Shown: positions 7,954-20,109 of the stretch, piece after piece
Layout of the letters: each line of letters starts with the position of its first letter
Numbering within the stretch: position 1 is the first letter of the stretch
The notes under the pieces: model-generated
Told to the model about the DNA's origin: nothing
Databases searched by the model: none
Seen by the model: only the letters and a program-made list of their open reading frames with translations
Source: Longimicrobiales bacterium
GTDB lineage: Bacteria > Gemmatimonadota > Gemmatimonadetes > Longimicrobiales > Gaopeijiaceae
Assembly: GCA_965219445.1 (NCBI GenBank)
Contig: CBDCNQ010000004.1
Location: 352,001 to 416,000, forward strand
Length of the DNA: 64,000 nt
Direction: 5' to 3'
Translations under genes and position numbers: made by a program

Positions 7954-8670
7954 ATGTCGAAGACCGTCGTCATTGACTGCTTTCCGGAGAGCGCCCGCCA
8001 CTACTGCGAGGCCTACGCCATCGTGGCCATCGATGTGATCCGGGCCACGACCACGGCGATCACGGGCGTTCACCTCGGACGGCGCTGCTTCACGGTGCCG
8101 ACCATCGAGGCCGGCCTGCCTCTGGCAGCTCGCCTCTCCGATCCGCTCCTGGTGGGAGAGCTGGGGGGCAACATGCCTTACGGCTTTCACATGACGAACA
8201 GTCCCGCGCACATCGCCACGCGAGACTACGATATGATGCGGCCGATGATCCTGGTGTCGTCGGGGGGGACCCAACTGATCCACGGCGCCAGGAATGCGCC
8301 GGCGCTCTACCTCGCATGCCTTCGCAACTACAGCGCCACGGTCGACCACTTGGCCGAACGGCATCGGCGCATTGCCGTCCTCGGGGCGGGTACGCGCGGC
8401 GAGTTCCGCGAGGAAGATCAGATGTGCTGCGCTTGGGTCGCACGGGGGCTGATCGAACACGGCTACGCACCAGAGGACGAAAACACCCAAGAGATCGTCG
8501 AGCGTTGGCGCGACTCGCCCGTAGAGGCCTGCGCCGAGGGCAACAGTGCCGCTTACCTGCGAGACACCGGCCAGCTCGAGGATCTGGACTTCATCCTGCA
8601 GTACGTCGACGATCTAAACGCCGTATACATGGTCAAGCATGATGAGGTAGTCGAGATAACAACTACGTGA
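7954..8670 (+). CDS. comB: 2-phosphosulfolactate phosphatase
   Basis: IDVIRATTT, GELGG..PYGF..NSP, LRN, GEFREED; directly downstream of comA. Confidence 0.88.
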   Translation: MSKTVVIDCFPESARHYCEAYAIVAIDVIRATTTAITGVHLGRRCFTVPTIEAGLPLAARLSDPLLVGELGGNMPYGFHMTNSPAHIATRDYDMMRPMILVSSGGTQLIHGARNAPALYLACLRNYSATVDHLAERHRRIAVLGAGTRGEFREEDQMCCAWVARGLIEHGYAPEDENTQEIVERWRDSPVEACAEGNSAAYLRDTGQLEDLDFILQYVDDLNAVYMVKHDEVVEITTT

Positions 8671-8678
8671 TACCGCCC

Positions 8679-9810
8679 ATGAGAGTCCTTCACCTTCTGG
8701 CCCCGGCGCAAGTCGGAGGACTCGAGCGCGTCGTCCAGGGCCTTGCCGATGGGTTCTGCCGCCGGGGGCACTCGGTGACCGTTGGGGCGGTTGCTGCGGG
8801 GGACGACCCGTTGTCACCGTTCCTCGAGCCATTGATCAAAAGAGGAGTAAAAGTCCGCCGGATTCATGTGCCACACCGCGCTTACGTGCGAGAGCGTCGC
8901 CGAATGGCGGAAATATGCCGCCAAGTAAACCCGGACGTGCTGCATAACGCATGGATATCGGCCCGACCTCCTCGCCAGGGGTCCGGCAAAGAGGCAGGGG
9001 ATCGCGACCGTCACCACTGTACACGGCTTTACCGGAAACGGATGGAAGAACCGCTTCTACGAGGCTCTGCAAGTTCAGGCCTTCAAGAAATTTGACGCGG
9101 TTGTGGCCGTCTCAGAGCCCATCCGGAAAGGATTGGTCAAAGCCGGGGTCCTCAAGAGCCGAGCCTGGATGATCCGGAATGCCCCGGTTTGTTTGGAGGC
9201 ATCTTTGACCCGCACGGAGGCTCGACGGGCTCTTGGCCTCCCCGAGGAAGGGCCGATCGTAGGATGGGTGGGGCGCCTGAGCCCCGAGAAGGGCCCGGAT
9301 GTCCTACTTAGGGCCGTGACCCTGATTGGCCGGCCCCAGGTACGCCTCTCCTACCTCGGAGACGGTTCCTCACGGGTAGCTCTCGAGGCACAGGAAAGAG
9401 AGATAGTGGCCCACGGATCAGTGGATTATGATCGAGTTCGCTTCCACGGCAATGTCGCGAACGCGGGCCGCCTGCTAAAGGCTTTCGATGTCTTGGTATT
9501 GAGCTCCCGGAGCGAGGGTACACCTATGATCCTTTTCGAAGCCATGGATGCTGAGGTGCCGGTGGTCGCCACTCGGGTTGGCGGGGTGCCGGATGTGGTG
9601 ACCGAACAAGAGGCGATTCTGGTTCCATCGGAGGATGCTGAGGCGTTGGCCCACGGTATTCGGCAAGTGCTCCACAACCCCACGGACGCTAGTCAACGGG
9701 CGCAGGGAGCTCGACTTGTACTCCGACAGAAGTTCGCCCCAGAGCGTTGGCTGGATGCGTACGAGGACCTCTACCGTGCTGTAATGGCAGGTAGGAGAGG
9801 CCTTGGCTGA
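8679..9810 (+). pseudogene. glycosyltransferase family 4, frameshifted
   Basis: Removing one A at 8946-8947 restores PDVLHTHGYRPD...TVHGF and joins to the C-terminal part containing SSRSEGTPMILFEAM. Confidence 0.85.
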
Positions 9811-9891
9811 TCGTATGCCACCTCCAGATAGCGGATTGGCTCCACTCCCCTATGCGGAGGGATCGTCATGCGCAGAGTTCCCTAGGACCGC

Positions 9892-9918
9892 GCCTGGATG
9901 ATCCGGAATGCCCCGGTT
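9892..9918 (+). repeat. 27-bp exact copy of GT4 internal sequence 9163-9189
   Basis: GCCTGGATGATCCGGAATGCCCCGGTT at both positions. Confidence 0.9.
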
Positions 9919-10074
9919 AGCTTGGGATCTGAACCGAGAGGAGTTCGGGAGATATTGGGTCACGGATCCGATGCCGTGTTGTCTTGCTCAGAGATGGCTC
10001 CGCGGCGGATGGCCCTCGAAACCCAGAAACCCGAGATGGAGGACTGTAATCGCAAGTAGCCGAGGGCCGCACTG

Positions 10075-11247
10075 ATGGGAGACCTGGGGATCGTTCTCCT
10101 CGGCGTTGGGGCAGGGCTATTCGCCTACACTTACGTCCTCTATCCGGGGCTCCTGAGAGTCTTGGGTACCGGCAAGGCACGCCTTGGCCCCCTTGTGGAC
10201 TCTGACGATTGGCCGACCCTGAGCATCTCGCTTCCCGCCTACAACGAGGAGCACCAGATCGCAGAGACACTCGAGAGCCTGTTGTCTCTGAATTATCCAA
10301 GAGACCGTATACAAATCTTGGTGGTTTCGGATGCTTCCACGGACAAAACAGACGATATCGTGCGGGCATACGGGGACCGTGGAGTGGAACTCCTCCGTCT
10401 CCCGGAGCGTCGAGGAAAAGGGGCCGCGGAGACGGCCGCAACGCCACACCTCACGGGTGAGATCGTTGTCAATACGGACGCATCGATCCGCATCGTCCCC
10501 GACGCGTTGAAGCCCCTGATCCGACAGTTCTCCGACCGTGAAGTGGGCTTGGCATCCGGTCGGGATATCAGCGTGGCCCCAGGCGTGGAAAACGCGAACA
10601 AGGGTGAGTCGAAATATGTGGGATACGAAATGGCGATCCGTAACCTGGAAACTCGGGTGGGGAGTATCGTAGGAGCTTCCGGGTGCTTCTATGCTATCCG
10701 GCACCATCTACATCGGTCACCGTTGCCCGTCCCTTTGAGTCGGGACTTCGCCGCTGCTCTTCTCTGCCGCGAGCGGGGTTATCGTGCCGTCTCGGTCCCT
10801 GAGGCGATCTGCTTTGTGCCGAGGGCTGCGTCACTAAGCCAGGAGTACCGTCGCAAGGTACGGACCATCACGCGTGGCCTGTGGACGCTGCTCCACAAGC
10901 GGAGCCTGATGAACCCATTCCGGTACGGGCTGTTCGCGTGGATGCTCTTCAGCCACAAAGTGTGCCGGTGGCTTGTGCCTTGGGCGGGTGTGACCGCCCT
11001 GGTCGGACTCGCTCTGATGACTCCCAGCATACCCTGGGCCCGCCTAGGCCTTCTGGTTGCGGGCGCCGGCCTCTTGTTGGGATCTGTCGGTTGGCTGGCG
11101 TCAGACCGGCGAAATCTTCCCTGGATTCTCGAATTTCCCGCCTTCGGCCTCATCGGAAATGTAGCCGCGATGCACGCGGTGCTACGGGTGATGAGGGGAG
11201 AAACGTACGCGCTGTGGGATCCGACGCGGAGAGCTTCGGTTCTCTAG
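10075..11247 (+). CDS. glycosyltransferase family 2
   Basis: PAYNEE, SDASTD, TDA, GASGCFYAIR, RRKVR; C-terminal TM helices. Confidence 0.92.
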   Translation: MGDLGIVLLGVGAGLFAYTYVLYPGLLRVLGTGKARLGPLVDSDDWPTLSISLPAYNEEHQIAETLESLLSLNYPRDRIQILVVSDASTDKTDDIVRAYGDRGVELLRLPERRGKGAAETAATPHLTGEIVVNTDASIRIVPDALKPLIRQFSDREVGLASGRDISVAPGVENANKGESKYVGYEMAIRNLETRVGSIVGASGCFYAIRHHLHRSPLPVPLSRDFAAALLCRERGYRAVSVPEAICFVPRAASLSQEYRRKVRTITRGLWTLLHKRSLMNPFRYGLFAWMLFSHKVCRWLVPWAGVTALVGLALMTPSIPWARLGLLVAGAGLLLGSVGWLASDRRNLPWILEFPAFGLIGNVAAMHAVLRVMRGETYALWDPTRRASVL

Positions 11248-12002
11248 ATCGCACCCCGCTTCATGACAACTACAGGGAGTGTCCGTGCCATGATCTCGAG
11301 ATCCAGAAGGGGGGAGCGGTTGCGGATGTACTCCAGGTCCAGATCTGCCTTCCTCCGCACATCGTCGATCGAGCGATCGTAATGGTGGCATACCTGGGCG
11401 AGCCCGGTGATTCCCGGAAGGACCTGCTGCCGGCCGGAAAGGTGGCGGACCTCACCGCGGAGTCGGACGAAAATATCCGGCTGTTCCGGACGCGGACCGA
11501 CCAGGTTCATGTCTCCGGTCAGCACGTTCCAGAACTGAGGGAGCTCATCAAGCCGATACTTCCGGAGGAACTTACCGACTCGCGTGATCCGCGCGTCGCC
11601 CTCCTCGGCCCAAACCTGGGAGGAGTCAGAGTCCGCTTGGACCATCGACCGGAACTTGTAGATGGTGAAGATCCGACCCCCATAGTCCTGGCTTCGGCGC
11701 GCCTCCTCCCGTCGGCTACGTAGTCCGCGCCGGTCCAGACCTACACGCGGCTGCATGAACAGGACCGGTCCTCGGGAGGTCAGCTTCACCACTACCGCAA
11801 CGGCCAGCATCAAGGGCGATAACACAGGTAGGACGACTAACGCTGCCAGCACGTTGAGAGCTCTGCACATGCCCTGGTTGAGGGCCGATCTCCCTTTCAG
11901 AGTCCGAGGTCGAACGAACTCCGGCTCCCGATAGTATAGCCTGAGACCATTCGGCAGGATGTCAACGCCCGTCGAAGCGCTCGTTTGAGTCTCTACCTGC
12001 AC
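11244..12002 (-). CDS. priming sugar transferase (Bac_transf)
   Basis: IYKFRSM, LDELPQFWNVL.GDMNLVGPRPE, PGITGLAQV. Confidence 0.93.
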   Translation of the reverse strand: MQVETQTSASTGVDILPNGLRLYYREPEFVRPRTLKGRSALNQGMCRALNVLAALVVLPVLSPLMLAVAVVVKLTSRGPVLFMQPRVGLDRRGLRSRREEARRSQDYGGRIFTIYKFRSMVQADSDSSQVWAEEGDARITRVGKFLRKYRLDELPQFWNVLTGDMNLVGPRPEQPDIFVRLRGEVRHLSGRQQVLPGITGLAQVCHHYDRSIDDVRRKADLDLEYIRNRSPLLDLEIMARTLPVVVMKRGAI

Positions 12003-12101
12003 CTAGCCTCTGTGCTCCACTCGAGGTCTCTGCCTGCAATCCGCTTAAGACGGCGAGATGCAAGATGCGTTCACAGATCGTGGCCCTACTTCACGATTAC
12101 C

Positions 12102-12842
12102 TTAAACCCTATGACAGCAATTATTTACGTGACTGGACATTCGATCCAACGGGGAGTGCGTGCGGACCGACGTGTCGTGAAGAGAAAAGGCGACTGCCTC
12201 ATCGTACTGACGGGAGGCCTCCTCTTGGGCAATAGTCATCAGGTCGTTGGAGACTCCTGCTAACCCCAACGCAGCAGAATAGATGAGGCCAAGCTGGCTT
12301 TTTTGCAGCTCGGTGAGACTTCCGCTCTGCCCATTCCGCAACGCCTCGGCAAGGAAAAGGATCGAGGTGAGAGGCGACCGCAGATCGTGAGCCACTTCAG
12401 CCACGAGTCGAAATGCGTTGGTTTCCGGCATTAGGGGCTCGAAGCCCTCGATGGCCGGTGCTTCGGCGAGGAGATCTATCGAGTGCAGCAATGCGAGAAC
12501 TCGATCCTGGTCGACGATTGGGTCCTCACGGTGCCATTGCTCGAGGAGACTCCTCCGAATCGCCGCAAGCAGGCGTACGTCGGTGTGCTCCAACGTCTCT
12601 TGCCCTTCACCATCCTCATACAGGACTCGGCCATCGCCGACCCGGTCCAGACGTATTGCGATGCGCATCAGTGCGTGGTCTATGGAGGATTCGCCGTCGG
12701 ACCCATTGGTCCAGTGGGGAGCCCACTCGGCAGATACCTCCCGAAGCGCCGTCTGGAGAGCGGGGCAGAACACCGCGGCAAACGGGTCGCTCGACCGGCG
12801 CTCGTCGACCGGATTCAGACCGGATGCGTCTGCGAGCATCAA
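12102..12842 (-). pseudogene. sensor histidine kinase, truncated (HisKA present, HATPase missing)
   Basis: AHDLRSPLTSI H-box; frame degenerates after FSLHDT with no N/G boxes. Confidence 0.75.
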
Positions 12843-13434
12843 TCCGGCTCCGGCAGTAGGGTGGTGCGGTGGGTTCCGTGCTTCTCCATGAGTCGATAGA
12901 GCGTCGTCCGGTCTACACCCGCATGCCGAGCCGCGTTGGAGATGTTTCCACCCGCCTGCTTGACAGCGTGCTCCAGATACGCCCGCTCGAAATCCGCCAG
13001 AATCAACTCACGGGCCTCATGGTAGCCCTTGTTCAGGTGGGACGACATGGGAGCGAATGCAGCTTCGGGCGAGACACCCTCACCCTCGAAGAAGGGGATC
13101 TCGTCGGGTCCGAGTTGTTGCCCGGGAGGTCGCAGCACTGAGATGCATTCGATGATGTTTCGCAGTTCTCTCACGTTGCCGAGCCAGGGACGGGCACGTA
13201 GTGACGCGAGGCCTTCGGGCGTAAAGATAGGGCGATCGAGTTCCTTCCCACGGTGTCGAATCCAGAACTCATCCAGAAAGGATTCGGCCAACGTCTCGAT
13301 GTCGTCTGGGCGCTCCCTGAGTGGCGGTATGTGAATCGGGAAGACCCGGAGCCGGTAATACAGATCTCCCCGCAGGCGCTTTTCTTTGAGCGCCTCAGTG
13401 GCGTCTTCGTTCGTGGACGAGATGAATCGTACTT
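12839..13434 (-). pseudogene. sigma-54-dependent response regulator, C-terminal part (end of AAA+ domain plus Fis HTH)
   Basis: VRFISSTN, DLYYRL, PPLRER, W.GNVREL, AARHAGVDRTTLYR. Confidence 0.9.
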
Positions 13435-13463
13435 GAGGTTGGGTCAATAGGTGTGTAAATGTT

Positions 13464-14708
13464 TCAGGCGGCGTTTTTCCGCTGTTGGGTTGAGACGGGC
13501 TTTCCGTCTTCGAACTTTCTTCCTTCAAATACGTCCTTGAGGAGGTGAGGAGCGTCGAGCCTTCTGAAGCGCTTCTCCGCCACCAAGAGCAGCTTCCAGA
13601 TCAGCGCCGTAGCGCTCTCGACCCGCTTGAAGCGCTTCGCCGCCGTTGTCCTGAGCCGTACTGCGGCAAAGGGGCTCTCGACCACGTTCGTCGTGCGTAG
13701 ATGCTTCCAGTGGTCCTCGGGGAAGTCGTAGAACGCCACCATCCGCTCCCAGTCGTCCTCGAGTACATCCACCGCCTTCGGATACCACGGTCTGTAGCGC
13801 CTGGCGAACGCCTCACGGGCCTTCAGCGCCTCGGACCGCCTCGGTGCGTAGACCACGGTCCTGAGAAGGTCCTTCGCCTCGCTCTGCTCCCGCTGAGGCA
13901 GCCGGTCCAGCACGTTCCTCATCTTGTGGTTCCAGCACCGTTGCTCGCCCGCCTCAGGCCATACCTGCCGTACTGCGCCCCAGATCGCCGCGTTGCCGTC
14001 CGCCATCAAAAGCCGGGGCGCCTCGATGCCGCGTGCCTTCAGATCCCGCAACACCTCGGACCAGGACTCGACCGACTCTCGGTAGCCCGATCTCAGGGCC
14101 AACACCTCCTTCGTACCATCTCGCATCGCACCGAGAACCACCAGCAGCGCTGCCTTGTCCCGCTCGAGCCCCGCCTTCACGTAGATCCCGTCCGCCCAGA
14201 CGTAGACGACCTCACGGTCGGCCAGCGAGCGCTTCGACCATTCCTCGAATTTCCTTGTCCATCCCGCCCGCAGCCGCCAAATCGAAGACTTCGACAACGG
14301 GGCCCCCTCGCCCAGCAGGCCCCGCATCGCCAGCTCGAAGTCTCCCTCCGCCAGCCCGTGCAGATACAGCTCCGGAAGCAGAGCACCCACCTCCTTCGTC
14401 CGTCGTGCGAACAACGGCAACACCCGACTCTCGAACCGCTCCTCAATGCCTCGAACCCGGGGCCGTCGGAGCATGATCGTGCCCGAGCTCATCGCCAGCC
14501 GCCGAGCCTTGCCGTAGCCGTTGCGGTAGCCTGGCGCCGGGTCTACGACCGTCTTCCGCTCCGACTTCTCCCGGCCGAGCAACTCCGTCACTTCCTCCTC
14601 CAGAATCCGCTGGACCATCTCCTGGGCCTTCTCACGAACCAGCGCTTCCAAGCACTCCCACGTCGGCGTGCTGGACTCACTCTCGGGTCCCACCATATTC
14701 TTCCTCAC
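13464..14708 (-). CDS. IS256-family (Mutator) transposase
   Basis: YRNGY, YVWADG, ADG, QRCWNHK, LRTTNVVES. Confidence 0.95.
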   Translation of the reverse strand: MRKNMVGPESESSTPTWECLEALVREKAQEMVQRILEEEVTELLGREKSERKTVVDPAPGYRNGYGKARRLAMSSGTIMLRRPRVRGIEERFESRVLPLFARRTKEVGALLPELYLHGLAEGDFELAMRGLLGEGAPLSKSSIWRLRAGWTRKFEEWSKRSLADREVVYVWADGIYVKAGLERDKAALLVVLGAMRDGTKEVLALRSGYRESVESWSEVLRDLKARGIEAPRLLMADGNAAIWGAVRQVWPEAGEQRCWNHKMRNVLDRLPQREQSEAKDLLRTVVYAPRRSEALKAREAFARRYRPWYPKAVDVLEDDWERMVAFYDFPEDHWKHLRTTNVVESPFAAVRLRTTAAKRFKRVESATALIWKLLLVAEKRFRRLDAPHLLKDVFEGRKFEDGKPVSTQQRKNAA

Positions 14709-14924
14709 GAGGCATCGTTCCTTTCCCCCGGGCGCTCACCCGGGATTCGCTGGTTAACTTCTTACTACCTAGCGGAAAGGTACGTCGCCTCTTTTTTTAC
14801 ACACCCTTCTATGGGGCTGGCGGTCAAGACGCACCTTCCCCACGCGCCGTCGGCTCATTTTTTGACCGTCGGCGTCCGCATGGTTTGGATTGCCCGGTCG
14901 ACGACTCAGGGTGGGGAGGGGTGC

Positions 14925-15120
14925 GCTCGCAGGGTCCGCATCGCAGTCCGGAAGACGTTCACAGCCGTCGCGTTCTCCGCTCTGGAGCGGGAACCATCCT
15001 TCTATCTGGGACTCTGTGGCCCATCGCTTCGTTCGGCTCTCCAGGGGTGCATAGCCTTTGAGTGGGGGCTTGGGCTCTCTGCCCCGGCCCACGGTGTGTA
15101 TGGATGCTGTCCCCTGTAAC
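14925..15120 (-). ncRNA. putative bridge/seek RNA of the IS110/IS1111 element
   Basis: Two stem-closed loops carrying target guides (UACACACC, UCAAAGG) and donor guides (AUAGAAGG, GAUGC); boundaries approximate. Confidence 0.75.
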
Positions 15121-15193
15121 CGGTTCGCTTCCGTTTCGTCGGACCCCATGTTGTGACCGCTTTCGACCCCACGCTCGCCGATCCCAGGCCGGT

Positions 15194-16249
15194 TTACTCC
15201 GTCGCTTCCAGTCTCTTGGGGTCGTACGCTTCGCCCGTGCGCCACACCGCTAGCACGATCGAGGCGAGCTGACGCGCGATCGTCAGCTTCGCCAGATTCG
15301 GCTTCGTGCCCCCCTCCAGGAGTCGCTCGTAGTGGCGGTACAAGGGTTCGTTTTCGGCCCGACCGATCACCGTCGTCGCCGCGCCCTTGAACACACGCTT
15401 CAGCGTGTGGTTGAAGTTCCGATTCAGCCCCCGCGTCTGCTGTACCGGTTCCCTTACCCACCGCCCACCCGGACCCCGCACCCAGTCCGACGAGCTCCGC
15501 ATCACGACGCCCAGTCCGCAGTACGCCCAGAACCTGCTCCGGCTCTGGAACCGGTACGGCGTCACCACCACCGGCAGGAGCTCCGCCGTCCGGATCGGAC
15601 CCAGACCCGGGCACGTCTTCAGCACATGCCACTCTCGATGCTTGCGTGCTTCCGCCAGCAAGGCCTTCTCGGCCTTCGCCCTCAATGCCACGAGTGCGTC
15701 GTGCTCCTCGTACAGCAACCCGGCCGTCGTCCTGCTCGCTTCCGGCAGCTTGGCCAACCACTCCTCCCGGTCGCGCTTTAAGTAGACCGAGCGCCCCGCG
15801 CCGTAGGCCACTCCTCTCGAGCGCAGCACGCTCTTGAGCCGGTTCTTCACCCGCACCGTGTCGCCGACCAGGAAGTCGTAGCTCTTCGCCCGTTCCCCCA
15901 GCCGCCTGAACTGGCCCCGGTTCTTGTAGACCCTCGTCTCCAGTGATCCGATCCGCAGCTTCTCCGCCAGGGCAAACGCGTCCAGCTTGTCGGTCTTCGG
16001 GCCCCGGCTCTTGCCGACCCCCGCCACCGTTAGCTCCTCCACGTGCGGCTCCAGCACCTCGTACAGCCACCCCGACAGCGTCCCTTCTTCCAGGCACAAG
16101 TGCCGGTTCCTCGGAATCCCTCGCAGCACCTCGATCAGCGCCCGCGCGTTCGTCTCCACCACCTGCGAGCCCAAGCGCTTGCCGCTGGGGCCTACAATCC
16201 CCAGCGTGCAGCTCGACGCGTGTGCGTCGAGTCCGATATATCTCTCCAT
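15194..16249 (-). CDS. IS110-family DEDD transposase/recombinase
   Basis: YIGLD, LEEG, KTDKLDA (DEDD), PGLGP, GLG..MRSSS with catalytic serine; ATG at 16249 after AGGAG. Confidence 0.95.
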   Translation of the reverse strand: MERYIGLDAHASSCTLGIVGPSGKRLGSQVVETNARALIEVLRGIPRNRHLCLEEGTLSGWLYEVLEPHVEELTVAGVGKSRGPKTDKLDAFALAEKLRIGSLETRVYKNRGQFRRLGERAKSYDFLVGDTVRVKNRLKSVLRSRGVAYGAGRSVYLKRDREEWLAKLPEASRTTAGLLYEEHDALVALRAKAEKALLAEARKHREWHVLKTCPGLGPIRTAELLPVVVTPYRFQSRSRFWAYCGLGVVMRSSSDWVRGPGGRWVREPVQQTRGLNRNFNHTLKRVFKGAATTVIGRAENEPLYRHYERLLEGGTKPNLAKLTIARQLASIVLAVWRTGEAYDPKRLEATE

Positions 16250-16410
16250 CGGCGTTCTCCTCTTGGATAGGTGGGTTGCTTCCTTGCGCGAACAATGATG
16301 AACGCGCACCCGCTCCCGGAGGAGAACGCCTCTTCGTCTTCGGGCTGCTTCGCTGCTGATCGGTACCGGTAGCCGTCGCCATGCCCCTATGATGCCTTTG
16401 ATCCTAGCTC

Positions 16411-17322
16411 TCGTACTTCGGCCAGGACGTCAGTGTCGGTGCTCCCCACACGGCGGATAACCCCATCTTGGATGACCCTGAGAAGCTTGGCCTGAGTGGG
16501 CATCGGCATCTGGGTGAGCTCATCCAGGAAAAGGGTCCCGCCGCTGGCTATCTCCATCAGACCCTTCTTGTCGCTCACCGCGCCCGTGAATGAGCCAGCG
16601 ACGTGTCCGAACATCTCCGACTCCACCAGATTGTCGGGGACGGCGGCACAGTTGATCGACACCATCGACCGACTGCTTCTCCGGCTGTTCTGGTGGATGA
16701 ATTGCGCGATCAACTCTTTGCCCGTGCCGCTCTCGCCGCTGAGGAACACAGTGGCATTCGTACGTGCGACGCTCCTGGCCATGTCGACAACCCGCCCAAG
16801 AGCAGCCGATTGACCAAGAATAGGGATCTCCGCGCCGTATCCCAATCCGGTCTCGTGGCTCTGGTACTGCTTGTCGCTCTCTCTCGACACGACGATCGCG
16901 TGCGCGGCCCGCCCCATGAGAATGTGGAGATGGGTAGCCGAAAAGGGCTTCGGGATATAGTCCCAAGCCCCCAGACGAAGGGCCTCGAGGCTGGTCTCCA
17001 CCGACGGCTTCCCGGTCATCATGACGACCAAGCACTCTTCGTCCTTCTCCACCGCAGCGTTCAGGAGATCCATTCCCGAGACGTCTCGCATGTAGAGGTC
17101 GAGCAGAACGATCTCAAAATGACGACGACGAATGAAGTCGAGAGCCTCCTCTCCGCCCGCCGTTACTGGAAACCCTTCGGCACGAAGCAAGGACGCACAA
17201 CTCTCGCGGAGGCTGTGGTCGTCGTCGACCACGAGTACGGGCATGGTCGATTTTACGTCGGTCTCGACGATCGTCGGGGGCCTCTCGCTGCCAGGCGTCC
17301 CTGTGGCTTCGGACGTCTTCAA
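16411..17322 (-). pseudogene. sigma-54-dependent response regulator, N-terminal part (REC plus AAA+)
   Basis: VLVVDDD, LLDL, GESGTGKE, ESEMFGH, GSFTGA, LFLDE, QAKLLRV; ends at the IS256 TSD. Confidence 0.92.
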
Positions 17323-17670
17323 GCTCGCCGGTCCCTCAGGTAGATGCCGCGGTTACAGTTGCGGAGACACGGATTCATACTCGATCCTCATTTGGGGCCT
17401 CGCCATTCAGGGGCAGTAAACATACGTTGCTGGAGGTACGCCGCAACGCACCTGTGGACTTCATGCAACGGTTCGTGTGTGGAGGTGCCATGAATCAAGC
17501 GGGGGGTAGGAGCCGAATCCCCAGTGTTTGCAAGTGTTTGCAAGAGTTTCGGTGAGTTCTTATTCTCCCGGAACATGTCGGTATCGGTCGTGCTGTGCTT
17601 CGGCTCTCGAGGGCTCACACGGCCATTCTGGGACAATCGATTCGTTGAGTAAATATGAACAAATGTTTGA

Positions 17671-20109
17671 GTGGAAGTAAACAAAAAGACGTGTTGGGAC
17701 GATGAGGACACCGTGAACAAAGACGAGTTGCCGGCTCCCAGCGCGGGGGTCGAGTTCCCGCTTATGGCGGCGCCGGATTCGCCGGACGTCAGTTACGAGT
17801 CTTTCGGCTCGGACCAGGATGAGGATTCCGGCGTCGACGTGCGGCGGCTCGTCGCGGCTGTTTTTCGCTTCAAATGGGTGGTGGCTCTTGCCACGATCCT
17901 GGGAGCCGTTGCGGGGGGAATAGCCTGGTCCAGAGTGGACCTGGAGTACGTCGCGGGAGGGTCTCTGTGGTTGCAGGCCTCCGGGGGTCAACTTCGAAGT
18001 CAGGGTCCGATCACCGGAGCTGAGCTGCTGAGCTCTTCTTCCTGGATTGAGCTCCTCAGGTCCCTCGCGGTGCTGAATACGATGGCGGTCGAACAGAGGC
18101 TCTACTTGAGCGTGCCCGACACGACCTTCAGGCCGGTGTTCGTTTCGTTTGGGATCGACGAGACGTTGGTCCCCGGGGATTACGAGCTCCATTATGCACC
18201 CGTGACACAGACGGTGACACTTTTTCGTGAGGGACTCATCGTCGAGAGTGCGGCGCCTGGAGCAAGGCTTGGCACCACGGTGGGATTTGACTGGACCCCG
18301 CCGGTAGAGGCGCTTGCAGCTGAGGAACGGATCCAGTTCTCCGTCGCTGCACCGCGGGTCGTGGCGGGCCAGATCCGAGCAAACCTCACCACTCAGATGG
18401 ACCAGAACGGGGCCTTCATGCGTGTCCAGCTCAGGGGGAGAGACCCAGTTGAAGTCGCGTCCACGCTCAACGCGATCCTGGACCGGCACGTCAACCTCGC
18501 GGCCGACTTGAAGAGCGCCGCCCTCGACGAGCGGACATCTGTTCTCGAAGGACAGCTTGCTACCGTCGAGAGTGAGCTTCGGGACTCCGAGCGACAGCTC
18601 GAGTCGTTTCGGATCAACACGATTGCCCTCCCGTCGGACGCCGCCATGCCCATTCAGGGAGGCATCCAGCTAACGCAGGGACCCGTATTTCAGACCTACA
18701 ACAGCCTGAAAATCGAAATTGAGGAGCTGCGTGCTGGGCGGAGAGCGATGGAGCGTGTGCTGGCGAGCCTGCCGGACTCGACGCTCAGGGTAGAGGTTCT
18801 GGAAACCATTCCCGAGGTTGCGACCTCTTCTCAACTCGTCACGGCGCTGAACGAACTCACCAATGCCCGCGTCCTGCTTCGCTCGCTCAAGCAGCGCTAT
18901 ACCGACGAACACACGGACGTGCAGGATCTCACGCGGGTGACCCAGATACTCGAAACCGAAACGATCCCAGACCTCCTGCGGTCCCTTGTTCAACGGGTCC
19001 AGGACACCGAGGAACGACTGCAGGTTCGGATCGACGAGGCAACTATTGAGCTGGGCGATATTCCTCCCCGAACCATCGAGGAGACCGGATTGGTACGGCG
19101 AGTCGCTTTGGCCGACCGCCTTTATGGGGACCTCAGAGGGCGGTATCAGGAGGCGGTGCTGGCATCGGCCAGTTCAGTGCCTGACGTCCGAGTACTCGAC
19201 CGCGCATCCCCGCCGAGGACGCCCGAAGTGGACGCCCGTGTTCGGGCGGCTTTGATTTCTCTTCTTCTCGGACTCGGAATCGGGCTAGGCTTGGCAGCCC
19301 TTTTGGATCGTGCCGACACTCGCGTCCAGTACACCAGTGACGTCACCAACGCGCTCGGGCTTGACATCCTCGGGGTTGTCCCAGTGATGAAAAACGGACG
19401 CGAACAGAGCCGGCGCCAAGCGGTGGAGGCCTTCCGGGAACTCCGCATGAACTTGGAGTTCGCGTACGGAGCCGGGAAGCCACTCGCTCTGACGCTGACG
19501 AGTCCGGATCAGTCGGAGGGTAAGTCGACGCTGGTGGCTAATCTGGCGACCAGCTTCGCCTCGGTCGGTCGCAAAACCCTGGTGATCGATGGGGACACAC
19601 GAAGGGGGGATCTGCATCGGATGTTGGAAGTGCCGCGGAAACCTGGCCTCACCGAGTTCCTCCGAGGCGACGCTGCCCTCACCGAAACGGTCCAGGCTAC
19701 CGGGTATTCAGGGGTCCACCTCATTGCGTCGGGCTCCCGCTTCCAATCCTCTCCAGAGCTGCTCGCCTCCGGGAAGCTCGGCGATCTTCTGGGTGAGTTG
19801 TGGGCGCGCTACGACGTCATATTAGTGGATAGCCCGCCGCTCGGCGCTGGCGCCGACGCCCTGATCCTGGGAACTCTCACCGGTCAACTCGGGCTCGTTC
19901 TCCGAGCCGGCCAAAGCGACATGAGCTTCGCACAAGCGAAGTTGGGAGCTCTTGAGCGTCTTCCTGTTAGGATGCTCGGCGTGATTCTCAACGCCTTTGT
20001 TCCGGGACGAGCGCAGGGGCACTACGCTTATGCGGACTACATCGAGGGATACGGCTCGGCAGATGAAACGGAGGAACCAGAGGCCCTCTTAGGCGTGGTG
20101 GAACGGTAG
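17671..20109 (+). CDS. polysaccharide co-polymerase / tyrosine autokinase (Wzc/GumC family)
   Basis: Two TM segments, coiled coils, Walker A EGKST, IDGD.RR, VDSPP, Tyr cluster HYAYADYIEGY; start may be GTG at 17713. Confidence 0.92.
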   Translation: MEVNKKTCWDDEDTVNKDELPAPSAGVEFPLMAAPDSPDVSYESFGSDQDEDSGVDVRRLVAAVFRFKWVVALATILGAVAGGIAWSRVDLEYVAGGSLWLQASGGQLRSQGPITGAELLSSSSWIELLRSLAVLNTMAVEQRLYLSVPDTTFRPVFVSFGIDETLVPGDYELHYAPVTQTVTLFREGLIVESAAPGARLGTTVGFDWTPPVEALAAEERIQFSVAAPRVVAGQIRANLTTQMDQNGAFMRVQLRGRDPVEVASTLNAILDRHVNLAADLKSAALDERTSVLEGQLATVESELRDSERQLESFRINTIALPSDAAMPIQGGIQLTQGPVFQTYNSLKIEIEELRAGRRAMERVLASLPDSTLRVEVLETIPEVATSSQLVTALNELTNARVLLRSLKQRYTDEHTDVQDLTRVTQILETETIPDLLRSLVQRVQDTEERLQVRIDEATIELGDIPPRTIEETGLVRRVALADRLYGDLRGRYQEAVLASASSVPDVRVLDRASPPRTPEVDARVRAALISLLLGLGIGLGLAALLDRADTRVQYTSDVTNALGLDILGVVPVMKNGREQSRRQAVEAFRELRMNLEFAYGAGKPLALTLTSPDQSEGKSTLVANLATSFASVGRKTLVIDGDTRRGDLHRMLEVPRKPGLTEFLRGDAALTETVQATGYSGVHLIASGSRFQSSPELLASGKLGDLLGELWARYDVILVDSPPLGAGADALILGTLTGQLGLVLRAGQSDMSFAQAKLGALERLPVRMLGVILNAFVPGRAQGHYAYADYIEGYGSADETEEPEALLGVVER

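Follow-up and report, generated by a model that had tools for sequence, protein, structure and literature searches.

Organisation of the locus

The window analysed in this study comprises 64,000 nucleotides from a Longimicrobiales genome (G000 in the following) and contains an NtrC-type regulator gene that is interrupted by two mobile elements, one nested within the other. The 5' half of the gene (16419..17322, minus strand) encodes the receiver and sigma-54 activator domains, the 3' half (12839..13426, minus strand) the AAA lid and the Fis HTH. The two halves are separated by an IS256 element bordered by identical 8-bp target site duplications (TSDs) at 13427..13434 and 16411..16418. An uninterrupted allele of the regulator gene is present in the contigs of two out of four public runs (X5 and X6), where the flanks are joined with one TSD copy and 13430-16415 is skipped. 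These contigs represent a related strain, with 35 and 18 differing letters in the two flanks.

The outer element fits the IS256 family with regard to its mutator-type DDE transposase, its imperfect terminal inverted repeats (IRs) of approximately 25 bp and the 8-9 bp TSD. The transposase gene is an open frame of 414 codons (13464..14708, minus strand; PF00872 with an E-value of 8e-59, NF033543 with 295 bits at a cut-off of 150). One terminal repeat, IR-A, lies downstream of this gene (13435..13459, plus strand), and the other one, IR-B, on its upstream side, is split by an IS1111-type element of 1,590 bp on the minus strand. The initial annotation had proposed an insertion of this kind into the 25-bp IR, and we could confirm it: deletion of 14809-16398 rebuilds a 25-bp end that shares 20 of 25 bases with IR-A.

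The inner part of IR-B (IR bases 13-25; 14796..14808, minus strand) contains the target half for guide 1 at 14798-14805 and a CT core at 14806-14807. The displaced outer part had been described as 12 IR bases. However, since CCTT is present at both junctions, it retains IR bases 1-16 (16395..16410, minus strand, including the second CCTT), with the core CT at 16396-16397. We place the element at 14808..16397 according to the 7+3 rule for its extensions; the bounds 14809-16398, which had been given before, are equivalent within the CCTT repeat.

A scan of 14650-16450 in its linear form did not detect a promoter, and there is therefore no sign that the IS256 transposase is expressed from a hybrid promoter involving the -35 box of the inner element.

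The IS1111-type element and its recombinase

The inner element encodes a DEDD recombinase of the IS110 family (351 aa; 15194..16249, minus strand), which exceeds the cut-offs of PF01548 (39 vs. 29 bits) and PF02371 (32.5 vs. 21.3 bits). The residues D8, E54/E55, D87, D90 and S253 are invariant in all 47 relatives. The score with NF033542 (112.8 bits) is below the cut-off of 140, as is that with the TIGR-Tas model (57.6 vs. 100); the best match among annotated plasmid IS110 elements has 28% identity, and a search of the PDB sequences yielded weak matches only (IS621 recombinase, E-value 0.019). Judged by sequence, the NF033542 score marks a divergent clade of the IS110 superfamily.

Several features resemble the IS1111 group. 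The non-coding DNA is located mainly downstream of the transposase gene (approximately 385 bp vs. 145 bp upstream), and there are extensions of 7 bp on the left (16391-16397) and 3 bp on the right (14808-14810) beyond the subterminal repeats, without a TSD. Deletion of 14808-16397 results in exactly the empty end that is present 44 times in the related genome G063, and thus the empty IS256 end predicted in the initial annotation does exist. The subterminal repeats themselves (right, 14811..14822, 3 bp from the element end; left, 16377..16390, 7 bp from the end; both given on the minus strand) are imperfect, with 12 matching bases and two one-base gaps in their alignment, compared to 11-13 bp and perfect or near-perfect repeats in the IS1111 group. 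From the C-terminal IS1111 motif GL-P----S(t)G, G245, L246 and S253 are present, whereas the proline and the following glycine are absent.

A -35-like hexamer (TTGACC, 14822..14827, minus strand) and a -10-like hexamer (CATCAT, 16389-16394, minus strand) lie towards opposite ends and would be 17 bp apart in a joined circle. This spacing, together with what is known from the family, suggests that copying out probably yields a circle of the element and that the joined ends form its promoter. No circle junction was found among the joints listed from the contigs of the four public runs (out of 24), which show presence only. Six RNA runs matched 5-8% of the words and do not count as evidence.

Predicted guide RNA and target recognition

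As in other members of the IS110 superfamily, a non-coding RNA with guides for both target strands and for the donor is predicted. This putative bridge RNA or seekRNA is located in the 3' non-coding region (14985..15125, minus strand), with a target-binding loop followed by a donor-binding domain. Its consensus fold is based on 28 relatives, and 14 of the 29 pairs exhibit changes on both sides. The single-sequence fold of the non-coding region was no better than that of shuffled sequences (z 0.10), and a search of this region against Rfam gave no match.

Target guide 1 (15093..15100, minus strand) matches the inner IR half in 8 of 8 positions, target guide 2 (15055..15061, minus strand) the core and the outer IR half in 7 of 7 positions, and the donor guide (14998..15005, minus strand) the element's own right end and core; it co-varies with this end in L045. 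Guide 1 (15100-15093) precedes guide 2 (15061-15055) on the RNA strand, which is the order of the IS1111 group, or in terms of strands, the complement of the top strand comes before the match to the bottom strand. The matches and their co-variation show that guide 1 corresponds to the 8 bases on the inner side of the CT core, and guide 2 to the core itself plus the adjoining outer bases; the DEDD recombinase would use the predicted RNA in this way.

The co-variation of guides and flanks was assessed by permutation. Observed matches were 90 vs. 56 (n=23) and 124 vs. 79 (n=24) in the genome set and 154 vs. 107 (n=36) and 231 vs. 147 (n=41) in the metagenome set, and in all four tests 0 of 10,000 permutations were as high as the observed value. 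The AG core is present in 37 of 42 readable flanks. In some relatives, e.g. L057, L059 and L082, the guides fit their own flanks poorly, and L233 possesses IS256-type guides, yet its left flank is not an IS256. The same guides also occur in a second transposase clade with 68% identity, and a single origin was rejected; one member of this clade, L235, is inserted at the same base of an IS256 that is 73% identical.

Insertion sites in G000

G000 contains 22 full-length copies of the element with 98.3-100% identity. The expectation that most copies sit at the same position of an IS256 IR held true, as 23 of 25 left ends adjoin the IR at the same base. Regarding the 24 right ends, 21 directly adjoin the IR, one is likewise located in this IR, together with an intron that arrived later, one results from an internal duplication and one is off-target. 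The latter type of site is occupied by one full element copy, and there the match to guide 2 is extended to 9 bases.

IS256 ends thus serve as guide-specified landing sites, as had been suggested, but only one of the two repeats, IR-B, is used. The octamer GGTGTGTA, which had been noted both at 13450 in IR-A (13450-13457) and at 15093, is indeed present at both positions. IR-A is nevertheless not a target in G000, where none of the 24 and 25 junctions adjoins it. At IR bases 14-15 it reads TA rather than AG, and it is mismatched to guide 2.

Independent insertions are indicated by element copies that are at least 98% identical but reside in IS256 hosts of 79-100% identity, and one identical element pair sits in hosts that are only 89% alike. 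A group IIC intron, considered as a second IR-targeting element, was rejected, since only one of its 13 copies is located in the IR.

Occupied and empty ends across genomes

The distribution of the intact 14-base target differs considerably between the six genomes compared, which are kin and not independent. Given as empty ends that carry it vs. the number of occupied ends, the tally is 0 of 5 vs. 23 in G000, 0 of 10 vs. 5 in the IS110-rich genome G064, 0 of 2 vs. 2 in G062, 2 of 5 vs. 6 in G061, 46 of 48 vs. 1 in G063 and 7 of 8 vs. 0 in G065. The genomes with at most one full element copy (G063 and G065) retain intact targets. Only substitutions were allowed in the search of the five genomes besides G000, so that empty ends with indels are not counted there, and G007 was excluded because its matches may duplicate another counted genome. 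Loose ends of the intact empty type are present in the contigs of all four public runs.

Every new intact IS256 copy would be a fresh target, and with an active element intact ends would therefore become filled while changed ends stay empty. This is the pattern that we observe, and we infer that intact ends are filled where the element is active, leaving only ends with a changed target. Filling is not automatic, since G063 has a single intact element, with identical guides, next to 46 intact empty targets; G061, too, retains two intact empty ends. The changed ends include eight identical core-changed ends in G064, all of them empty, and this variant also occurs in G061.

In G000, three empty copies that are otherwise identical exhibit single-base junction changes (C4:1221680, C4:199262 and C5:267938). 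It was considered whether these scarred ends are rearrangements made by the recombinase, but this is unsupported: all three are without a TSD of their own, but so are 15 of 25 copies, and no head-to-tail dimer junction was detected among the element junctions of G000.

Mobility of the split IS256 and alternative explanations

The insertion parts IR bases 17-25 from bases 1-16. In ISCth4, a copy-out paste-in element related to IS256, binding to the IR involves two portions, bp 1-12 and bp 14-25 (PMC7780238, in the available text), and by analogy the split should cut the subterminal binding site of the present IS256. According to the same portions of that source, integration in vitro still took place, albeit more slowly, when one end of the ISCth4 junction had only 14 bp and lacked 12 subterminal bp. 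Loss of the inner binding half-site with retention of IR bases 1-16 therefore suggests that the mobility of a filled IS256 is reduced rather than certainly abolished, a reading that we favour by a small margin. The claim that the insertion immobilises the IS256 until the inner element excises was accordingly not borne out, as 16 outer bases remain, a related transposase tolerates a short end and excision is doubtful.

This last point concerns the idea that the insertion locks the IS256 until the inner element is precisely excised, whereby the end would be restored and the IS256 freed. Removal of the subterminal half-site by the split would agree with such a lock, and IS621 excises and restores its target at a low rate (PMC13626964). 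In contrast, no restored target was found for CazIS110-1, none was detected for ISEc11 in the accessible part of PMC11187229, and for IS4321 and IS5075 the available text of PMC5001619 gives 5,248 and 403 circle reads with 0 deletion junctions. Moreover, none of the five empty ends in G000 is intact, and a precise empty junction with the flank of this locus, across 14808-16399, was absent from the contigs of the four public runs, which show presence only. Release by excision is thus doubtful, and we regard a lock with later release as unlikely. A further possibility is that the IS256::IS110 composite moves as a unit, mobilised by the IS256 transposase via the complete IR at one end and the 16-bp outer remnant at the other; the inner element would then hitch-hike rather than disable its host, and part of the apparent saturation would be composite spread. 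Besides the tolerance of ISCth4 for a short end, the five composites of G064 point in this direction: they have a common IR base that occurs in 0 of 10 empty ends, their inner elements differ at 0-7 and their hosts at 2-8 positions, and four of the five have their own TSD of 7-8 bp. Likewise, 13 composites of G000 have identical IS256 bodies, and an intact empty copy as their source is absent from this genome. However, among these 13 hosts none of the 78 inner-element pairs is identical (median of 13 differences), the host and passenger distances in G064 are only partly congruent (L171 groups with L175 by passenger and with L186 by host), and the 44 exact empty ends in G063 show that IS256 spreads without a passenger. 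The nine bases that were displaced do not differ between the two IRs, as would be expected for a binding site, and a figure-eight mimic of ISCth4 with a minimal end was not integrated (PMC7780238, same portions). Since recombination among the element copies is extensive, with 326 of 528 site pairs failing the four-gamete test, haplotypes leave room for some composites having moved as a unit. We consider it somewhat unlikely that the composite is still mobile in this way.

Part of the pattern in G000 might also be an artefact of assembly or polishing at long repeats, which would have produced the three junction changes, shuffled TSDs and mosaic inner elements; the targeting would be real, but the apparent escape in G000 would not. 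All three changes fall on position 1 or 2 following the core, two of them correspond to the base of the inner element at that position and one is a homopolymer shortening, and only 10 of 25 complete copies in G000 have their own TSD vs. 22 of 27 in G063. On the other hand, the remaining two empty ends of G000 are simple substitutions in copies that are older and have retained their TSDs, and one of these substitutions recurs in G065. G064 exhibits the pattern as well, with its eight identical core-changed ends and their counterpart in G061, and junction changes occur in 0 of 27 empties in G063, so that an artefact appears improbable. That the element prefers a short motif or structure without any guide, and that its association with IS256 goes back to one old insertion that was later amplified, would be compatible with the many composites that have one IS256 allele in common. 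This is refuted by the co-variation of guides and flanks and by the host divergence, as the same base is used in hosts that diverge by up to about 21% and in four other genomes, and also by the related L235; we regard it as extremely unlikely.

It is thus very probable that an IS256 came first, that an IS1111-type element guided by its RNA was then inserted, that intact ends became filled and that the filled IS256 is probably less mobile. The entry of the IS256 into the NtrC-type regulator gene with duplication of 8 bp is directly visible at this locus, as is the position of the IS1111-type element in the transposase-upstream IR, whereas the order of the two events is the more plausible one.

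Comparison with known systems and implications

Partridge and Hall reportedly described in 2003 that IS4321 and IS5075 of the IS1111 family reside in the terminal IRs of Tn21-family transposons, and Muller et al. are said to have reported in 2001 that IS1383 of Pseudomonas putida H targets the inverted repeats of IS1384. IS1383 is a direct precedent, being an IS110/IS1111-family element aimed at the IR of another IS; the host family differs, with IS5 for IS1384 and IS256 in our case. IS1383 is also named in the source data of PMC11187229, as far as these are available. Our literature search found no paper naming IS256 as the target of such an element. With IS4321 and IS5075 our element has in common the DEDD recombinase, the 3' non-coding region, the extensions beyond the subterminal repeats and one fixed position within the terminal IR of another element (PMC5001619, available text). 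In contrast to them, our element has a host of the IS256 family, occupies only one of the two host IRs and encodes a transposase of a distant clade. For IS4321 and IS5075, the available text of PMC5001619 contains no mention of saturation together with changed empty ends.

The seekRNA systems of ISEc11, ISKpn4 and ISPa11 are similar with regard to the downstream non-coding region, the guide order and the 7+3 bp extensions, and natural re-programming is described for ISXne4 and ISMch6; in the case of ISEc21, the target is the transposase gene of IS3-family elements (PMC11187229, accessible part). Compared with these systems as presented there, our element has imperfect subterminal repeats, an IS256 IR as its target and the C-terminal motif GLG(I/V)xxxSSSD instead of GL-P----SG. 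The host in turn resembles ISCth4, which possesses IRs of approximately 26 bp that are imperfect, an 8-bp TSD and a mutator-type DDE transposase, and the AG core at bp 14-15 coincides with the two-part boundary of the ISCth4 IR (PMC7780238, available text) and with the position where the host's own two IRs differ. The mechanism and the habit of targeting IRs are therefore already known, and the present study adds the population picture and the changed empty ends.

One could assume that this reflects an arms race. The element would fill all intact IS256 ends and thereby curb the spread of IS256, while alleles with a changed 2-bp core, situated where the two half-sites bound by the transposase meet, would escape and multiply (eight in G064), and imprecise loss of the inner element would leave immunising scars (three in G000). 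The guides might answer, with one extra match in G064 and, in G065, a shifted pair of guides at the other IR, and the same guide pair would have arisen separately in two clades. We put this forward as a tentative possibility.

Since the guide and its multi-copy target are both readable from DNA, this pair makes it possible to test directly if RNA-guided elements restrict how far other IS spread and select for escape alleles in the ends of the latter, and also how natural guides are re-programmed. Moreover, the divergent clade of bridge recombinases (at most 28% identical to annotated plasmid IS110 elements) provides dozens of natural guide/target pairs. For annotation, it should be considered that the 3-kb composites are miscalled unless their nesting is recognised.

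Anatomy of the composite element

The initial annotation described an IS110/IS1111 element inside the terminal inverted repeat (IR) of an IS256, and this anatomy is correct; the element is placed here at 14808-16397 (minus strand). The 8-bp target-site duplication (TSD; 13427-13434 and 16411-16418, recognized from the sequence) and the rebuilt IR were both recovered, since removal of 14809-16398 yields a 25-bp end with 20/25 identities to the other IR (13435-13459). CCTT is present at both junctions and the outer end therefore retains IR bases 1-16, not a remnant of 12 bp as initially proposed. The IS256 transposase ORF (13464-14708, minus strand) scores above the curated cut-off, and the IS110-family ORF (15194-16249, minus strand) possesses both IS110 Pfam domains with a score under the NCBIfam cut-off. 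The recombinase (15194-16249) also matches the TIGR-Tas model NF052498 over residues 123-287 (57.6 bits, cut-off 100), as would fit the relationship reported between Tas and IS110 proteins.

The gene interrupted by the IS256 codes for an NtrC-type regulator, and its halves are joined with a single TSD copy in contigs from two of four public runs, in a related strain. Judged by eye, the regulator lies among polysaccharide-synthesis genes (8667-20109) with glycosyltransferase-like, sugar-transferase-like and chain-length/tyrosine-kinase-like ORFs. A histidine-kinase-like ORF (12102-12842) may be truncated as well.

One IS256 end as the target

We consider it highly probable that the inner element is an RNA-guided element of the IS1111 type whose target is one end of IS256. 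Its own genome (G000) contains 22 full-length copies with 98.3-100% identity, in addition to partial ones, and most copies do share one position of the IS256 IR, as expected: 23 of 25 left ends adjoin the outer part of the IR, the remaining two belonging to an off-target copy and a 62-bp fragment. Likewise, 21 of 24 right ends directly adjoin the inner part; the other three comprise one within this IR, next to a group IIC intron inserted a few bases off, one internal duplication and the off-target copy. The occupied hosts are 79% to 100% identical to the IS256 of the window, so the site was struck many times independently. One pair of identical inner elements resides in hosts 89% alike, and no identical pair was found in the 78 pairs among 13 identical hosts. 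The octamer noticed in the other IR is indeed present there, but this IR is not used as a landing site in G000.

The 3' non-coding region consists of a conserved frame and two variable segments. The 8 bases on the inner side of the CT core are matched by guide 1 (15093-15100), and the core together with the bases on its outer side by guide 2 (15055-15061). The right end of the element itself has its match in a third segment (14998-15005). Both target guides are identical across all 23 readable copies in G000; at the off-target copy, guide 2 matches over 9 bases and guide 1 at 6/8, with the register shifted by one. Guides of relatives were scored against their flanks and the pairing was permuted 10,000 times, with poor-fit rows retained. 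The guide/flank scores were 90 vs 56 (n=23) and 124 vs 79 (n=24) in the genome set (40 rows whose guides could be read, drawn from 76 loci and the window and de-duplicated by guide pair), and 154 vs 107 (n=36) and 231 vs 147 (n=41) in the metagenome set (guides readable in 62 of 80 loci). None of the 10,000 permutations reached the observed score in any of the four tests. In 37 of 42 readable flanks the common dinucleotide reads AG on the strand of the element (CT on the plus strand of the window), the same core as that given for IS621 in the available text of PMC11208160. In a consensus fold of 28 relatives both sides have changed in 14 of 29 pairs; a single-sequence fold of the non-coding region was no better than shuffles. 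Judged by its sequence, the inner element appears to work like an IS1111 element, but its subterminal repeats are gapped, its C-terminal motif is partly kept and its placement in the IS1111 clade is tentative.

IR-targeting by such elements is already known and the present case is a further example, with an IS256 end as target. IS4321 and IS5075 reportedly target Tn21 IRs, and IS1383 is said to target those of IS1384. ISEc21 targets IS3-family genes according to the available text of PMC11187229. A search restricted to sources other than subscription papers and ISfinder revealed no paper combining IS110, bridge RNA or seekRNA, and IS256, and a broader literature search found IS256 named as target in no title or abstract start. 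The term is also absent from the searchable supplements of PMC11187229 (six files, excluding one picture PDF) and PMC11208160 (seven files, one left out) and from the main text, without supplements, of 10.64898/2026.08.14.744561.

Distribution and origin of the guides

Transposases with 94-100% identity were found in Longimicrobiales MAGs, and in four of the five genomes carrying them the inner element occupies the same base. The single copy in the kin genome G065 (L039, 94% identical) has changed guides; its left end adjoins the other IS256 IR, with a junction near 2860 shifted by one base, and its right flank is not IS256. Relatives with 46-85% identity mostly possess different guides and different flanks. 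As an exception, the metagenome locus L235 (68% identical) carries the same guide pair within the RNA scaffold of its own clade and is inserted at the same base of an IS256 with a 73%-identical transposase. A second metagenome contig, L233, has similar IS256-type guides and a different left flank, and one of its flanks is of the ancestral target type; both loci belong to a transposase clade of their own (68-69% identity). Well-supported branches of a 47-protein tree require the IS256-type guides to have arisen at least twice. A single origin occurred in 0% of 200 bootstrap trees and a single clade was rejected (p-AU 3e-87). The repeated guide pair could result from convergence or from a short recombination tract, L235 being one short metagenome contig.

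Occupancy of IS256 ends

The most interesting part of the finding is the occupancy pattern. The empty IS256 end that had been predicted does exist, with 44 exact copies in G063 and five in G065. Intact empty ends versus occupied ends number 0/5 vs 23 in G000, 0/10 vs 5 in G064, 0/2 vs 2 in G062, 2/5 vs 6 in G061 (among the matches listed), 46/48 vs 1 in G063 and 7/8 vs 0 in G065. This tally omits one 2-mismatch G064 match of unclear origin and six low-ranking G061 matches, and indel variants were covered in G000 only.

The intact 14-base target does not occur in the whole G000 genome, where all five empty full-length IS256 copies are one base off. Two of them carry substitutions in older copies, one common to G065. 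The other three (C4:1221680, C4:199262, C5:267938) each have a different one-base change at one of the two bases that follow the core and are otherwise identical to the main allele; by arithmetic, about 22 kb over 16 copies show no other difference. These changes are either marks left when an element was lost imprecisely or errors of assembly. No such change was present in the 27 of 48 G063 empties examined. Among the G064 empties, one core change is common to eight and a different one to two, and the five composites share a core-adjacent base absent from all empties, while their guide 2 has one extra match. These composites are explained by movement as a unit roughly as well as by filling at a later time. 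Changed empty ends, re-tuned guides and the repeated guide origin might tentatively suggest an arms race of IS versus IS, a reading based on six related genomes with assemblies taken as given. G063 has 46 intact targets alongside an intact element whose guides are the same, which counts against a simple filling rule; a linear copy might be expressed at too low a level, by analogy with the available text of PMC13626964.

Mobility of the split IS256

After the insertion, IR bp 1-16 remain in place and bp 17-25, a stretch in which the two IRs do not differ, are replaced. For ISCth4, also of the IS256 family, the available text of PMC7780238 describes IR binding at bp 1-12 and bp 14-25, slower but retained in vitro integration of a junction with one 14-bp end, and no integration of a figure-eight mimic with such a short end. 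By analogy, the mobility of the split IS256 is likely reduced, though perhaps not lost altogether.

The initial annotation considered immobilization probable until the inner element excises. Release by precise excision seems doubtful by comparison with other elements, since in the available texts no restored target was detected for ISEc11 (PMC11187229), IS4321 and IS5075 gave 0 deletion junctions vs 5,248 and 403 circle reads (PMC5001619), and CazIS110-1 moves by copy-out (10.1101/2025.10.25.684509). IS621 is a counter-example, as its target is restored on excision (PMC13626964, available text).

Rearrangement among copies

Of 25 complete copies in G000, only 9 are still flanked by their own TSD (10/25 by the less strict rule applied to G063), compared with 22/27 in G063 (Fisher p 0.004). 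Many G000 flanks match those of another copy, in pairs and three-way cycles and also across contigs (for example C3:149204, C3:165138, C4:1220295), and the inner elements are mosaic, as incompatibility affects 326 of 528 site pairs. The swapped flanks and the mosaics are most simply read as products of homologous recombination between longer repeats; mis-assembly or action of the recombinase itself are possible sources of the same patterns.

At C4:1169767-1171666 in G000, a 1,900-bp intron in the inner half of an occupied IR creates a three-layer nest. Its ends and its location behind hairpins suggest a group IIC-type intron; it encodes a 481-aa reverse-transcriptase-like ORF and has 13 copies in G000, of which this one alone lies within the IR. 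One extra 511-bp tandem copy of the element right end with the RNA region is present in G000 (C5:1612735-1613245) and two of about 460 bp in G062 (L035/L172), both duplications being joined at short internal microhomologies. A one-base deletion in a G run (element position 414), common to 5 of 22 full copies in G000, changes the frame of the final six recombinase codons (345-aa matches). Some occupied copies have imprecise junctions (L032/L174 in G061 and C5:1030822 in G000): three bases are duplicated at one right junction, and one left junction has lost a base.
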